A stretch of 64,000 bases of DNA from Chloroflexota bacterium (lineage in GTDB: Bacteria > Chloroflexota > Dehalococcoidia > UBA2979). Location of the stretch: assembly GCA_045863195.1 (NCBI GenBank), contig BTUI01000001.1, positions 395,453-459,452 of the forward strand, written 5' to 3'. The position numbers were made by a program, and so were the translations under genes. This document shows positions 7,754 through 15,439 of this stretch, piece by piece. The notes below the pieces were generated by a model. The model saw only the letters and a program-made list of their open reading frames with translations. It made no database searches and had not been told where the DNA came from. Position 1 is the first letter of the stretch; every line of letters starts with the position of its first letter.

Positions 7754-9040
7754 CTACTCGTTGCCGGCGGGGCCGGGCGGCGTGCCGCTGCCCTGCGCCG
7801 GCGCGGGCGAGGTCCCCGTGCCGGGGGGCGGTGTGCTGGTGGTCGGCGTCGTGGGTGTCGTGGGCGTCGTCGGTGCTGGCGAGGCGGGGGTGCTCCCGCC
7901 GCACAGCACCACGAGCGCGGTGGTGCCGGTGATCGTGCCGCCGGGGAACCGCGACTCCCAGCCACGGTTCACGAAGGAGGGCGCGCCCGGCGTGTACCCA
8001 ACGAACTGGCCGTCCGCCGCGGACCAGACAGAGGAGACGTTGCACCCGCCCGACTGCGCGGCCGTGACCAGCGAGGTGGTGGGGCCGCCGCTCCAGACGA
8101 CGAGCCCGACCCCACGCGAGGGCACGCTGCCGACGATCTGGCCGCTGCCCGATCCCGTGGCGGGCGTGGACGTGGGGGGCTGCGTGGAGGCCGGCGGGCT
8201 CGTCGTCGTGGGCGTGGTCGGCGCGGTGGTGGCCGGCGGCGTCACGGGGCCGCTGCCCAGCGGCTGCAGGTACTGCTCCGCGACCCAGCCGACGCGCCCC
8301 AGCGCCGTGATCTGCCGCCACAGCAGGCCGTCCGCGCTCGTGCTGCCGTCCATCACCGTGACCACGGTCGAGTCCGGCAGGCAGGTCAGGACGACGCCCG
8401 CCACGCCCGCGGAGGAGCGGAGCCGCAGGCAGTCACCGTCCGCAGCGACGATCGCGGAGCCGCCCGCCACCAGCGAGGCGTTCGGGGTGACCTGCGGTTG
8501 CGTGTCGGCGGTGACGCCGGGGAAGCGGTAGGCCCGCGCGGTGATGTTCGGGTAGCGCGCGGCGAGCACGGCCGGGTTGTAGCCGGTGCGGATGCGGACC
8601 ACGCCGTCCCACTGGGAGTTGGAATCGATGACCGTGAGCACCCCGCCACCGTGGTTCGTCATGACGATCGCGGTGTGCAGCCCGGCGTAGGAGACGCTCG
8701 GCCCGGAGTTGGCGTCGTCCGCCATCTGGATGACGTCGCCCTCCTGCACCGCGTCCAGGGCCACCTCCACCGCGCCGGCCTGCAGGTAGCCCTGGCGGTA
8801 GTCCCAGCCGATCGTCCGCCCGGTCGCCGCCTGGATGACCCGGCGCACCCACGGGAAGCATTCGCCCTCCCACCGGTCGAGCGACTGCATGGCGATGCTG
8901 ATGACGTTGGTGAGCGCGGCGTCCGCACCCGGGGTGGTGGAGGCGCGCGCGGGGCTGGTCGCGACGAGCGTCAGGGCGACGGCGAACGTCGCGGCGGCGA
9001 ACAGACTGAGCACGCGACGGGCGCGCGACGGCTCCGGCAT
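7754..9040 (-). CDS. Secreted cell-wall hydrolase: CHAP (Cys-His amidase/peptidase) domain + SH3b-like domain + Pro/Thr-rich linkers
   Basis: 428-aa ORF. Sec signal peptide (LSLFAAATFAVALTLVATSPARAST). CHAP Cys (GECFPW) and His (GLHTAIV). SH3b-like segment (LRLRSSAGVAGVVLTCLPDSTVVTVM...WRQI). PT-rich linkers. Confidence 0.65.
   Translation of the reverse strand: MPEPSRARRVLSLFAAATFAVALTLVATSPARASTTPGADAALTNVISIAMQSLDRWEGECFPWVRRVIQAATGRTIGWDYRQGYLQAGAVEVALDAVQEGDVIQMADDANSGPSVSYAGLHTAIVMTNHGGGVLTVIDSNSQWDGVVRIRTGYNPAVLAARYPNITARAYRFPGVTADTQPQVTPNASLVAGGSAIVAADGDCLRLRSSAGVAGVVLTCLPDSTVVTVMDGSTSADGLLWRQITALGRVGWVAEQYLQPLGSGPVTPPATTAPTTPTTTSPPASTQPPTSTPATGSGSGQIVGSVPSRGVGLVVWSGGPTTSLVTAAQSGGCNVSSVWSAADGQFVGYTPGAPSFVNRGWESRFPGGTITGTTALVVLCGGSTPASPAPTTPTTPTTPTTSTPPPGTGTSPAPAQGSGTPPGPAGNE
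7838..7875. repeat. Short tandem 9-nt repeats (GGYGTCGTG-like) inside the CHAP gene encoding the (TTP)n linker
   Basis: ggcgtcgtgggtgtcgtgggcgtcgtcggtgct seen directly; corresponds to the TTPTTPTTPTT linker on the minus strand. Confidence 0.3.
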
Positions 9041-12065: not shown

Positions 12066-12380
12066 ATGCCCCCGGAGCGGGTGAGCATGGCCGTCGTCCG
12101 GTTCCTCTTCCTAGCATGCGTCGCCGCGACCGCGATGGGCGTGGCGCAGACGGTCGCGGCTGCGCGGGCATCGGTGCCGGTGAGCGCGCGCGTCGAGGCA
12201 GTCGTGGAGGGCTCGGTCCTCCTCGTGCTGGAGGGGCCGGCCCCGGGCCGCGTAAGCCTGCGCGCGGACGACGCCGCCTCGGCGTGGGCGGAGTGCGAGG
12301 CGGCTGGCGATGCCTGGCGCTGCCCGAGCCCGGCGGGAGCCGATCAGGCACGGCTCCTGGTGACGGCCTGGACCCGCTAG
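12066..12380 (+). CDS. Hypothetical small secreted protein
   Basis: 104-aa ORF. Sec-type signal peptide (MAVVRFLFLACVAATAMGVAQTVAAARA). No recognisable domain. Lies immediately upstream of the SipW-like module. Confidence 0.3.
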   Translation: MPPERVSMAVVRFLFLACVAATAMGVAQTVAAARASVPVSARVEAVVEGSVLLVLEGPAPGRVSLRADDAASAWAECEAAGDAWRCPSPAGADQARLLVTAWTR

Positions 12381-12449
12381 GGCTGTTTACTCGAACTTCA
12401 CCAAACCTCTCCCAACCTCGGCATCCTGCATCCCGGGACACCTCATAGC

Positions 12450-12932
12450 GTGATGTGTGTCGAAGTCACGCTCGTCCGGGGCTTGCCCGGACGGCGCCCA
12501 TGGGCTCCGAAGGGGTTCATCAAAGTGTTCCTGTTTCAACTGCTCGGGAAGTCGTTCTGGCTGAGCACCGCGGCCGGCGTGACCGCCGTCGCCGTCGGTG
12601 GCACCGCGCTGACCGCCGCGAACACCGTGCCGGGCACCGTGGCCGGTTCCGGTACCGGCACGATCTCCGGCTACACGATCACGGACATCTCCTACACGCT
12701 GAACGGCACCAACCCGCAGAACCTGGACGCCGTGGTCATCACCTACGACGATGCGCCGGGCGACCCCACGGTGGCGCGCGTCTCGCACAACAACGGGACG
12801 AACTGGTTCAACTGCAACGCCGGCATCAACGATGTCGCAAACACCGTGACCTGCAACGCGGGCTCCACACCGTCGTTCGCGGGGACCGGGGTCGCGGCCG
12901 CCACCAACCTGATCGTGGTCCTGACGCAGTAG
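12450..12932 (+). CDS. Secreted Gly/Thr/Asn-rich protein with long SipW-cognate-like signal peptide (TasA/camelysin-class substrate candidate)
   Basis: 160-aa ORF preceded by a low-GC promoter-like spacer. Basic n-region, then a long hydrophobic core (VFLFQLLGKSFWLSTAAGVTAVAVGGTALTAANTV). The overlapping alternative frame (12455..12967) is Arg-rich junk. It shares an LTA[AS]NTV segment with the product of 14541..15080. Confidence 0.55.
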   Translation: MMCVEVTLVRGLPGRRPWAPKGFIKVFLFQLLGKSFWLSTAAGVTAVAVGGTALTAANTVPGTVAGSGTGTISGYTITDISYTLNGTNPQNLDAVVITYDDAPGDPTVARVSHNNGTNWFNCNAGINDVANTVTCNAGSTPSFAGTGVAAATNLIVVLTQ

Positions 12933-12963
12933 CCCACCGGCGAACATCGGACCGAATCGCACC

Positions 12964-14541
12964 ATGACGAAGCCGGCCCCCGGGCGAGTTCGGCGCGGAC
13001 CCTTCCGCGCCGGCCTGCGCGCCGGGGCCACGCTCGTCCTCGTGCTCGCCGCCTGGATCCTGTTCGCCCCGGTCCAGGTGGGCGGCTCGTTCTCCTACTT
13101 CCGGGTCGTCGGCGACTCGATGGAGCCGAACCTCACCGCCGGCGACATGGTGCTCATGCGCACGGACGAGCGGTACGAGGTGGGCGACGTGGTCGCCTAC
13201 CGCGACCCGGACCTGGGCCCCGTCCTGCACCGCATCCGCGACCGCGCCGGCGAGCAGTTCATCCTCCGCGGCGACAACCGCGACGCGGACGACCCGTACC
13301 GGCCGCTGGAGGACGAGATCGTCGGACGCCTCTGGAAGGTCGTGCCGAGCGGCGGCGACGCCATGCTGCGACTGCAATCGCCGCAGATGTCCGCCCTCTT
13401 CGGCACCGGGGTCATCCTGTTCGGCGCGATCTCTCTGCGCGGGAAGGCGAAGCGTCCGGAGCGCCGTCGTGACGCCCGAGGCGGCTCGAACTGGTCCGGG
13501 CTGCTCACCGACCGCGCGCAGGTCGGCGCCAGCCTCATCTCCGCGGCCGGGCTCGCCTTCGCGGGCGCGGTCATCCTCGGCGGCGTCGTGCTCGCCAACC
13601 CGGCGGTCACGATGGTGACGCGGGACGTCGCGATCGAGCACGCCGGGACGTGGGAGTACTCGGGCGTCGCGGGGAGCGGCCTGTACGACGGGGACACGGT
13701 GCGCACCGGCGACCCCGTGTTCACCCGCCTCGGCGAGCGCGTCCCGGTCACCTTCGCCTACCAGGTCACCACGCTGACGAACGGCCGCACGCTGGAGTCG
13801 GTGCGCGGCTCCACGCGCCTGCAGATCGAGATCTCGCAGGACAACGGCTGGCGTCGCCGCATCCCCGTCCAGGAGTGGACGCCGTTTACCGGCAAGCAGG
13901 CCACGGCCAGCGGTGTGATGGACCTGGGCATCCTCGCCCGCCAGGCGGACGCGATGGAGGAGGCCACGGCGCTCATCTACCCGCAATACCGTGTCGACCT
14001 GATCGCGGAGGTGGAGGTCCAGGGCGACCTGCTGGGCGAGCCGTTCGTCGACCTGTACGAGGCACGGCTGCCGTTCATCCTCGGGGAACTCGTCCTGACC
14101 CCCGCGCCCGGCTTCCGCGCCGACCCCATGGCGGCGGTCTCGCTGCCACGCAGCACCCCCGGCCCGTGGACCTACATGCTGCCGGTCGTGGGGATCGAGG
14201 TCACGTACAGCCAGGTGCGCCTCGCGGCCATCGGCCTGGGCATCGCGGCGGTGGTGCTGCTGAGCGTCGTCGGCGCGGCCACCCGCCTCGCCGCGGAGCG
14301 TGGCGAGGCGTCCCTGATCGCGTCCCGGTACGGAGCATTCATCGTGAACGCGGACTCCACGGAGGTGACCTTCGCCGGACGCCGGGTGCTGGTGAAGGCG
14401 ATCGATGACCTCGTGAAGATGGCACGCCAGGACGGCCTGTTCATCGTCCACGAGGAGGTGGACGGCGAGCACCGCTATCACCTGGTGCTGCCGGACGTGA
14501 CGTACACCTACCTCACCGGGCAGCGGACGGTCGCGTTCTGA
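12964..14541 (+). CDS. Signal peptidase I, ER/archaeal type (SipW/Sec11-like, Ser-His dyad) with ~350-aa C-terminal extension containing an extra TM segment
   Basis: 525 aa. N-terminal TM, then VVGDSMEPNL (box B Ser), VVAYRD, and LHRIRDR (His general base), diagnostic of S26B/SipW-type peptidases. The C-terminal region (about 180-525) has no recognised domain and a third TM (AAIGLGIAAVVLLSVVGAA). Confidence 0.75.
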   Translation: MTKPAPGRVRRGPFRAGLRAGATLVLVLAAWILFAPVQVGGSFSYFRVVGDSMEPNLTAGDMVLMRTDERYEVGDVVAYRDPDLGPVLHRIRDRAGEQFILRGDNRDADDPYRPLEDEIVGRLWKVVPSGGDAMLRLQSPQMSALFGTGVILFGAISLRGKAKRPERRRDARGGSNWSGLLTDRAQVGASLISAAGLAFAGAVILGGVVLANPAVTMVTRDVAIEHAGTWEYSGVAGSGLYDGDTVRTGDPVFTRLGERVPVTFAYQVTTLTNGRTLESVRGSTRLQIEISQDNGWRRRIPVQEWTPFTGKQATASGVMDLGILARQADAMEEATALIYPQYRVDLIAEVEVQGDLLGEPFVDLYEARLPFILGELVLTPAPGFRADPMAAVSLPRSTPGPWTYMLPVVGIEVTYSQVRLAAIGLGIAAVVLLSVVGAATRLAAERGEASLIASRYGAFIVNADSTEVTFAGRRVLVKAIDDLVKMARQDGLFIVHEEVDGEHRYHLVLPDVTYTYLTGQRTVAF

Positions 14542-15080
14542 TGCAGCCCTCGCGGATGCTCCTCGCGGGGATCCTGCCGCTGTTTCTGCTGCTGGTCGTG
14601 ACCGCGGAGCCGCAGGTCCTGACCGCGAGCAACACCGTGGCGACGAGCGCCCTCAGCCGCACCGCCGGCGTCCCAACCGTCCGCCAGTTCGCCCCGGCCG
14701 AGTGCAAGGCGAACATGTCGGAGGCGTCGCTGAACGCGCTCACCCGTCGGCTGATGCCAGGCCAGAACGGGAACAACAGCGCCAACCTGATCCTCGGCAC
14801 TTCCGCGAATGACACGATCACCGCCTCCGGCGGTGACGATTGCGTGGTGGGCGGCGGCGGTGCGGACAACATCCAGGGCGGCAACAACGCGGACGTGATC
14901 CTCGGTGGGCTCGGGAACGACACCGTGCTGCGAGGCAACGGCGGCAACGACTTCGTGTTCGGCGGTGACGGCAACGACTCCGGCATCCGCGGCGACGCCG
15001 GCACCGACACCTGCGACGGTGGGCCGGGCACCGACTCCGTGGCGGACGGCACCTGCGAGACCGTCATCAGCATCCCGTAG
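14541..15080 (+). CDS. Secreted RTX-type (hemolysin-type) calcium-binding repeat protein
   Basis: 179 aa. Start ATG overlaps the SipW stop (TGATG). Signal peptide, then VLTASNTV. At least six GGxGxD nonapeptide repeats (GGDDCVVGGGGADNIQGGNNADVILGGLGNDTV...). Confidence 0.6.
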   Translation: MQPSRMLLAGILPLFLLLVVTAEPQVLTASNTVATSALSRTAGVPTVRQFAPAECKANMSEASLNALTRRLMPGQNGNNSANLILGTSANDTITASGGDDCVVGGGGADNIQGGNNADVILGGLGNDTVLRGNGGNDFVFGGDGNDSGIRGDAGTDTCDGGPGTDSVADGTCETVISIP

Positions 15081-15154: not shown

Positions 15155-15439
15155 ATGGACGCGACGTGGGAGGCGGCAATCGGGCTCGGCGTGGCGCCGG
15201 CGGTGCTGCCGGTGATCGTGGAGCACCTCAAGCGGGCGGTGCGGCGGGAGTCCGTCTGGCCGCTCGTCACGGACGCCCTCGCCATCGCCTGGGTGCTGGC
15301 GCTGCGGGACGCGGGGCTGCTCGGCGCGCTCGGACTCGGCGAGGTGCGCGTGACGACGGCGGTGCTGCTGGGACTCGCGACCGGCGTGGCCGCGTCCGCG
15401 GGCTACGACGGCTGGCGAGCGCGCGTGGGGAGCGCGTGA
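15155..15439 (+). CDS. Hypothetical small membrane protein
   Basis: 94-aa ORF with 2-3 predicted TM helices. It sits in an otherwise unexplained 412-nt gap. No domain recognised. Confidence 0.25.
   Translation: MDATWEAAIGLGVAPAVLPVIVEHLKRAVRRESVWPLVTDALAIAWVLALRDAGLLGALGLGEVRVTTAVLLGLATGVAASAGYDGWRARVGSA

Follow-up and report, generated by a model that had tools for sequence, protein, structure and literature searches.

Three genes in the window analysed here, a stretch of 64,000 nucleotides of Chloroflexota DNA (contig BTUI01000001.1, positions 395,453 to 459,452), form a compact cassette in which a long archaeal-type signal peptidase is encoded between two small secreted proteins that carry the same sequence at the end of their signal peptides. 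We denote these genes A, B and C. We propose that they represent a dedicated peptidase with its cognate substrates, which would, by analogy with the tapA-sipW-tasA operon or with the archaeal Tafi system, build a donor-strand fibre or matrix; we give this reading a probability of roughly 0.6. The same logic, a dedicated peptidase serving cognate substrates, had been put forward in an earlier reading made from the letters of the window (hereafter the sequence-only reading). It holds because the gene order recurs in ~22 loci from two phyla, the junction is common to two substrate classes, the catalytic residues are kept, and a reverse test that starts from the relatives of A leads back to the same kind of peptidase. 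Direct support thus covers the gene order, the fold and catalytic residues of the peptidase, the architecture of its DUF5305 extension, the conserved junction in both families of substrates and the tight association of these families with the fused peptidase.

The cassette lies in a region of ~72% G+C and consists of three co-directional open reading frames (ORFs) on the forward strand. Its features are as follows, with TM standing for transmembrane helix and AF2 for AlphaFold2:

12510..12515, forward strand: ribosome-binding site AAGGGG of A, read from the sequence, 9 nt upstream of the GTG codon
12525..12932, forward strand: gene A, class-1 substrate, 135 aa, delimited by homologue lengths and the GenBank call
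12609..12629, forward strand: LTAANTV junction of A, residues 29-35, at or beside the predicted cleavage site
12964..14541, forward strand: gene B, archaeal/endoplasmic reticulum (ER)-type signal peptidase I (SPase I) plus DUF5305 (TafG-like), 525 aa
13090..13344, forward strand: SPase I catalytic domain of B, extracytoplasmic, residues 43-127, with TM1 and TM2 on either side
13117-13119, forward strand: Ser52 codon of B
13228-13230, forward strand: His89 codon of B
13519..14517, forward strand: DUF5305 module of B, residues 186-518, from the AF2 model, hydropathy and the PF17231 matches of homologues
14541..15080, forward strand: gene C, class-2 substrate, 179 aa, assigned by its PF00353 match and its junction
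14619..14639, forward strand: LTASNTV junction of C, residues 27-33
14766..15053, forward strand: RTX/beta-roll calcium-binding repeats of C, ~residues 76-171, from PF00353 and NCBIfam RTX-type matches

The end of A and the start of B are separated by 31 nt, and the TGA stop of B overlaps the ATG start of C as TGATG, which suggests that B and C are translationally coupled. The database entries for exactly these proteins are GMU39536-GMU39538, from the Chloroflexota metagenome-assembled genome (MAG) AMXMBFR23, each labelled "hypothetical protein".

We searched for related loci with a profile built from the 13 closest B sequences. The order class-1 gene, long peptidase, then a class-2 gene and/or more class-1 genes was found in loci L001-L003, L005, L008-L016, L018, L020-L022 and L030, which belong to Dehalococcoidia, Anaerolineae, Chloroflexia, Gaiellaceae and Arthrobacter/Pseudarthrobacter, and hence to both Chloroflexota and Actinomycetota. 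The linkage also holds in the opposite direction: the A-family members P0069, P0086 and P0131 each adjoin a peptidase-DUF5305 gene (three of the three informative contigs; a fourth was too short to tell). The neighbours of the cassette in the window are all unrelated housekeeping genes, encoding an alpha/beta hydrolase, a LOG-family protein, a luciferase-like monooxygenase, CtaA and a DtxR-type repressor, and the flanking genes change from one homologous locus to another; we therefore take the cassette to be A-B-C alone.

Other arrangements were also seen. A split or variant form occurs in a Chloroflexia MAG (L017, 4414-7459), where a class-1 gene of 127 aa with the junction AAANEVP is followed by a 185-aa peptidase that has no DUF5305, and the next gene encodes a protein of 661 aa with a class-2-like N-terminus (FAASNWIPESG...LKPAEC). 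Short SipW-like peptidases are found in Acidimicrobiia/Limnocylindria (L026, 3005-4021; L027, 4459-4890 and 5537-6073; L028, 3433-4971); their neighbours have a different N-terminal signal (...AASLGGLT...) and appear to be a separate class of cognate substrates.

The feature that ties A and C to each other is the junction, LTAANTV in A and LTASNTV in C, each located after an N-terminal hydrophobic stretch. A search for the motif beside long SipW homologues in other genomes had been proposed in the sequence-only reading. When all retrieved loci were translated in six frames, a junction of the form (Y/G)(A/G)(F/L)(A/T)A(A/S)NTVP was seen to follow the hydrophobic core in proteins encoded beside long peptidases at ~22 independent loci. 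The core A[AS]NT[VTL] stands directly after the hydrophobic stretch in peptidase-flanking genes of L001, L002, L003, L005, L008-L011, L013, L015, L016, L021 and L030, and the close variants AFTAGNTF, AFTASNTQP, AAANEVP, ATNTVP and AAANVVP occur in L012, L014, L017, L018, L020 and L022. Because the motif is kept in homologous loci, the sharing of LTA[AS]NTV by A and C is, as judged from sequence, far beyond chance. On the same basis, two otherwise unrelated protein classes share the last part of the signal peptide and about ten residues at the start of the predicted mature protein.

A sequence logo of 113 A-family members shows a basic n-region and a hydrophobic core of ~16 residues, followed by a small residue at -7, Y/F at -6, A/G at -5, F/L at -4, A/T at -3 and A/S/T at -1; the alanine at -2 reaches 100%, a value imposed by the search pattern. 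Downstream, asparagine is present in 90% of the sequences and leads into T-V-P-x-(S/T)-x-A-G-D-G-S-G-x-I-S-G-Y-T-V. The test with a signal-peptide model of the TIGR04088 type, which the sequence-only reading had proposed, came out negative: among NCBIfam models no SipW-cognate signal peptide matched A, C or their relatives at E<=1 or E<=10, with the presence of TIGR04088 in the release unchecked and with HMMER filters that may lose short models.

A and C are predicted substrates of Sec, not Tat. An RR motif is present in the n-region of 19 of 150 A-family members under a loose definition and of 1 of 150 under a strict one, and the window proteins have none. The minority with an RR motif among P0059-P0208 recalls the Tat/Sec switching that has been reported for archaeal Tafi pilins.

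With regard to the cut itself, the (-3,-1) rule fits two family-wide positions, AxA↓F(A/T)A(A/S)N and (A/T)A(A/S)↓NTVP (arrows mark the bond). The first would leave an aromatic first residue, which is also what mass spectrometry found at the mature N-terminus of TafA. The second fits both window proteins (TAA↓N in A, TAS↓N in C), the first option in C being the poor PQV↓L, so that the predicted cut LTA[AS]↓NTV would be the sole rule-obeying site for both. In TafA the real cleavage site departs from the SignalP prediction, and dedicated peptidases can therefore cut away from a predicted site.

The sequence-only reading had assigned B, with its 525 aa, to the ER/archaeal-type peptidases from its GDSMEP and HRIRDR motifs, and this assignment is supported. 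An alignment of 25 full-length homologues shows that S52 (in GDSMEP), H89-R90 (in LHRIRDR) and G103-D104 (in GDN) are invariant and that D110 is nearly so. The spacing of these Ser/His/Asp/Asp residues is what we take to be the Sec11/SipW-type set, unlike the bacterial Ser/Lys dyad. B scores 31 bits against Pfam Peptidase_S24 (cut-off 23.3), 49.7 bits against TIGR02228, the model of archaeal-type SPase I, and 23.4 bits against NF046067, the Bacillus SipW equivalog (cut-off 190). The AF2 model places a peptidase domain at residues 43-127 between TM1 (14-38) and TM2 (~140-156), and an SPase I/LexA-like beta fold is present between these membrane anchors. By these sequence and model features B is a membrane-bound Ser/His archaeal-type signal peptidase I whose catalytic residues are kept.

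The remaining ~350 residues of B had been described as having no recognisable domain and a single further (third) transmembrane helix; neither description stands. Most homologues come with a precomputed match to PF17231 (DUF5305), and a rescan matched 22 of the 25 full-length homologues at E<=1e-3, with a best value of 3e-13. The structure prediction, also proposed at that stage, gave a layout comprising an Arg-rich disordered cytoplasmic linker (157-185), TM3 (186-211), an extracellular beta-sandwich (215-414) with pLDDT (the per-residue AF2 confidence score) above 90 throughout, TM4 (415-445) and a cytoplasmic alpha/beta domain (448-518). B thus has four transmembrane helices in total, two of them in the extension. 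TM1, TM3 and TM4 are strong in hydropathy; TM2 falls below the threshold used, so it rests on the AF2 helix and on topology. We read the extension as a DUF5305/TafG module, with the same layout as the published DUF5305 architecture.

DUF5305 is known as TafG in haloarchaeal Tat-fimbriae loci, where it occurs alongside the peptidase TafD (PMC11821415, PMC12337348), and deletion of tafD blocks the processing of TafA (PMC11821415). Bacterial peptidases with a DUF5305 domain have been listed from Actinoplanes lutulentus and from Tepidiforma bonchosmolovskayae, itself one of the Chloroflexota, with the suggestion that peptidase and DUF5305 act jointly (PMC11821415; PMC12337348). A 2026 preprint on AbpX describes the DUF5305 architecture and an SPase I fusion in Anaerolinea thermophila (E8MZY1), and regards DUF5305 as a putative accessory subunit of SPase I (bioRxiv 10.64898/2026.01.04.697558). 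The fusion seen in B is therefore already known, having been mentioned in passing, and its accessory function is a proposal made in the literature. The sequence-only reading had called both the architecture and the substrate class undescribed: for the peptidase-DUF5305 fusion this is overtaken by the two reports (PMC11821415, bioRxiv 10.64898/2026.01.04.697558), and for the substrate families, of which we found no description, it still stands. That the two are naturally fused argues strongly, on genetic grounds, for DUF5305 acting with the peptidase, and B offers both in a single chain for structural and biochemical studies of what DUF5305 does.

Two homologues of B, P0014 (838 aa) and P0015 (811 aa), continue beyond the cytoplasmic alpha/beta domain into a C-terminal EAL domain (PF00563, E 8e-63; alignment columns ~700-990). 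These fusions suggest a link to regulation by cyclic di-GMP (c-di-GMP) and of biofilm formation.

Gene A had been taken to start at 12450 and to encode 160 aa. The start is most likely the GTG at 12525, giving 135 aa, because the AAGGGG lies 9 nt upstream of it, homologues are 130-135 aa long and the GenBank call is likewise 135 aa. The protein consists of a signal peptide, LTAANTVP, a Gly/Thr-rich N-terminal extension (~residues 32-49) and a core (50-135) that forms an FN3/Ig-like beta-sandwich with Cys97 and Cys110 inside it. The monomer model has six main strands, and its conserved 18-residue N-terminal extension is disordered.

A itself has no match in Pfam or NCBIfam. A word-indexed search returned 19 relatives, and an exhaustive profile search returned at least 1,531 cluster representatives at E<=1e-3 (713 at E<=1e-10), the clusters being defined at 50% identity; among the 150 matches listed, most are 115-140 aa long. 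None of 100 members scanned against Pfam gave a meaningful match, and profile searches of the PDB with A-family profiles gave nothing below E 0.3. The fold is a generic FN3/Ig sandwich without a pilin-specific match, and it is not a jelly roll like that of TasA or AbpA. A could not be placed in the TasA superfamily (TasA PF12389, AbpA, AbpX, TafE/TafA), as it shows neither sequence or profile similarity to these proteins nor their jelly roll. With no description in Pfam, NCBIfam, the PDB or the literature that we could find, the class-1 substrate family is apparently new.

Class-1 genes may also occur as tandem paralogues, two to four around one peptidase (L030, 3785-4575; L021, 4075-4496; L042, 738-3890), and L022 likewise has multiple class-1 paralogues. 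Such an arrangement is typically seen where a locus encodes major and minor subunits.

C was correctly recognised in the sequence-only reading as an RTX repeat protein that overlaps the stop of B. It matches PF00353 in 4 stretches with 55.6 bits (cut-off 23) and combines a signal peptide and LTASNTV with a FAPAEC segment, the RTX nonapeptide repeats and a C-terminal Cys pair. NCBIfam RTX-type matches span residues 76-171, with the models for RTX toxins far below their cut-offs. The idea that C is an RTX toxin or a substrate of type I secretion was rejected in view of its N-terminal hydrophobic signal, its junction and its housekeeping neighbours. Downstream genes at other loci have the same junction, followed by (F/L)xPxEC, a short GGxGxD region and a C-terminal Cys pair. 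The junction is carried by 42 of 118 relatives of C, the others being generic RTX proteins that match the repeats only; most of the 42 are 127-131 aa long and have the form ALAATN(T/A)VPxSNAERDVSxITVDQxKPxPxC. No matching description was found in the literature or databases, and this class-2 family of RTX beta-roll proteins with a Sec signal is apparently new as well.

We propose that the cassette functions as follows. A and C would cross the membrane by Sec, and B, with its catalytic domain facing outward, would remove their non-canonical signal peptides by cutting at or just before the (F/L)(A/T)A(A/S)NTVP junction. The DUF5305 module probably positions the substrates or hands them over, and it may couple the process to a cytoplasmic signal. 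Cleavage would free the flexible N-terminal extension on the small FN3/Ig-like protein A, and, if TasA/TapA, Tafi and AbpX are a guide, the freed extension may then act as a donor strand through which A polymerises into an extracellular fibre or matrix. C would present the same N-terminal segment on a calcium-binding beta-roll and could serve as a TapA-like nucleator, cap or anchor; the N-terminus of TapA resembles the donor strand of TasA and is predicted to complement it (PMC9674648). What we infer is where exactly the cut falls, what DUF5305 does, and that the subunits polymerise by donating strands.

We count in favour of a fibre role the disordered N-terminal extension on the sandwich of A, the class-1 paralogues, the EAL fusions and the LysM-domain proteins with a transmembrane segment that follow the cassette in L002 (8205-9119, 304 aa) and L005 (7761-8852, 363 aa). 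These LysM proteins could serve as a cell-wall anchor, and the window has no equivalent of them. Several observations weigh against our proposal. Class-1 and class-2 junctions within a locus do not co-vary significantly (p 0.12-0.26). The TIGR02228 score of B lies just below the cut-off of 51.85, and the match of B itself to PF17231 is weak (E=0.0017; 18.3 bits, gathering score 29). The fold of A does not connect it with any known donor-strand subunit, its N-terminal extension is Gly/Pro-rich and not clearly amphipathic, and no obvious cell-wall anchor was found in the window. A Lys-Asn isopeptide link is excluded, as mature A contains zero lysines.

A more specific version of the proposal, which we advance tentatively and consider unlikely as a whole, is that the A family is a previously unrecognised, minimal class of donor-strand subunit, ~100 residues long, with an FN3/Ig-like fold that has no relationship to the jelly roll of TasA. 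This subunit would be assembled by B, a single polypeptide. The peptidase half of B would unmask the N-terminal strand, and the DUF5305 half would be a membrane-anchored chaperone or assembly platform. The cytoplasmic domain, sometimes fused to EAL, might gate assembly by c-di-GMP, and C, the Sec-exported RTX beta-roll, would use its copy of the strand to start or cap the fibre, dependent on calcium. Such a minimal subunit class would, if real, be widespread in Chloroflexota and Actinomycetota.

It is also conceivable, if rather doubtful, that B is dedicated to surface proteins that do not polymerise. A, as an Ig-like adhesin or coat protein, and C, as a calcium-binding protein, would then stay monomeric and soluble or wall-associated, no fibre would form, and B would be needed only because the signal peptides of A and C are atypical. 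The generic fold of A, the lack of an anchor or usher-like component in the window and an N-terminal extension that is not clearly amphipathic all suit this explanation. Against it stand the near-invariant mature N-terminal segment common to two otherwise unrelated classes, the tandem class-1 paralogues, and the fact that all characterised systems with SipW/TafD-type peptidases, with or without DUF5305, make donor-strand fibres.

Less probable still, the junction may be a sorting or modification signal for another machine, for example through modification or attachment of the invariant asparagine, with B only incidentally adjacent. The conservation of Asn (90%) and of the following T-V-P does go beyond the needs of a beta-strand or a (-3,-1) site, and the real cleavage site of TafA differs from that predicted by SignalP. 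Yet no further enzyme gene is conserved alongside the cassette from locus to locus, the flanks being housekeeping genes that vary, and N-T-V is no N-glycosylation sequon. Finally, that B is a catalytically silent, SipA/LepA-like chaperone for pilus polymerisation, as in Streptococcus pyogenes, is very improbable given that the 25 homologues keep S52, H89 and D104 without exception and D110 almost without exception, that there is no sortase gene, and that A and C have no LPXTG, pilin-motif lysine or terminal sorting signal.

We also scanned the surroundings of the cassette for regulatory elements and further components. The promoter and terminator scan found no sigma-70-like promoter around the cassette, and Rfam gave no credible match to a riboswitch or regulatory RNA there. 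A weak, terminator-like hairpin at 12367-12381 closes the ORF upstream of A; a hit of the same scan at 14565 falls inside gene C and is probably due to chance. Sortase, LPXTG, chaperone and usher were absent from the window cassette and from the related loci inspected.

The ORF directly upstream of A (12066-12380, forward strand, 104 aa), which the hairpin at 12367-12381 follows, has a signal-peptide-like N-terminus (MAVVRFLFLACVAATAMGVAQTVAAARA), no Pfam match and no junction motif, and it is not kept in L001. Downstream of C, an ORF at 15155-15439 (forward strand), which may or may not be a gene and part of the cassette, would encode a hydrophobic protein of 94 aa, also without a Pfam match. 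A secreted protein of 428 aa with long Pro/Thr-rich linkers (7754-9040, reverse strand) is encoded ~3.5 kb upstream and is likely to be a surface protein with no relation to the cassette.

In Bacillota and archaea, the TasA, Tafi and AbpX matrix-fibre systems are marked by dedicated archaeal-type signal peptidases. With the cassette this logic reaches Chloroflexota and Actinomycetota, two phyla that are poorly studied although abundant in soils, sediments and bioreactors. The cassette departs from the known systems in two respects: peptidase and proposed DUF5305 partner form a permanent fusion, and neither substrate family has any annotation. The AA(A/S)NTVP junction provides a simple handle with which thousands of "hypothetical" proteins could be annotated. 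Cultivable carriers exist, with Pseudarthrobacter humi RMG13 (L014) among the loci found here and Tepidiforma and Actinoplanes in the literature, so that the fibre hypothesis is directly testable.

A close parallel is tapA-sipW-tasA of Bacillus subtilis, the operon of the TasA biofilm fibres, which is likewise small and has a dedicated Ser/His archaeal-type peptidase between two secreted substrates. There, one N-terminal segment, the donor strand of TasA/TapA, is common to the major and the minor substrate (PMC9674648). The components themselves differ. SipW has ~190 aa and no DUF5305 module, whereas B is a fusion of 525 aa; TasA is a 26-kDa jelly roll (PF12389), whereas A is a sandwich of ~100 residues without a TasA match; and C, unlike TapA, is an RTX beta-roll. 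The junction motif also differs from that of tapA-sipW-tasA. SipA/LepA of Streptococcus pyogenes, a peptidase homologue needed for sortase pili, lacks the catalytic residues and works with sortases, whereas B keeps its Ser, His and Asp, and neither sortase nor LPXTG accompanies it.

With Tafi the cassette shares a peptidase and DUF5305 located beside several small secreted subunits, and TafD is experimentally required for pilin processing (PMC11821415, PMC12337348). In Tafi, however, TafD and TafG are separate proteins and export is by Tat, whereas here peptidase and DUF5305 form one polypeptide, export is predicted to be by Sec, the subunits have no detectable relation to TafA/TafE or DUF1102, and neither a TafB regulator nor a TafF-type component is present. 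AbpX homologues have been reported in Chloroflexota, and calcium takes part in AbpX assembly (bioRxiv 10.64898/2026.01.04.697558); AbpX loci and the cassette have in common an SPase I with a putative DUF5305 accessory part and, for the cassette by prediction, an involvement of calcium. The AbpX-associated peptidase has ten transmembrane helices, unlike B. AbpX itself folds as a jelly roll of 163 aa whose donor strand contains one aromatic and one acidic residue, and A shows neither feature. In the cassette, by contrast, the calcium-binding element is a separate protein, the RTX protein C.

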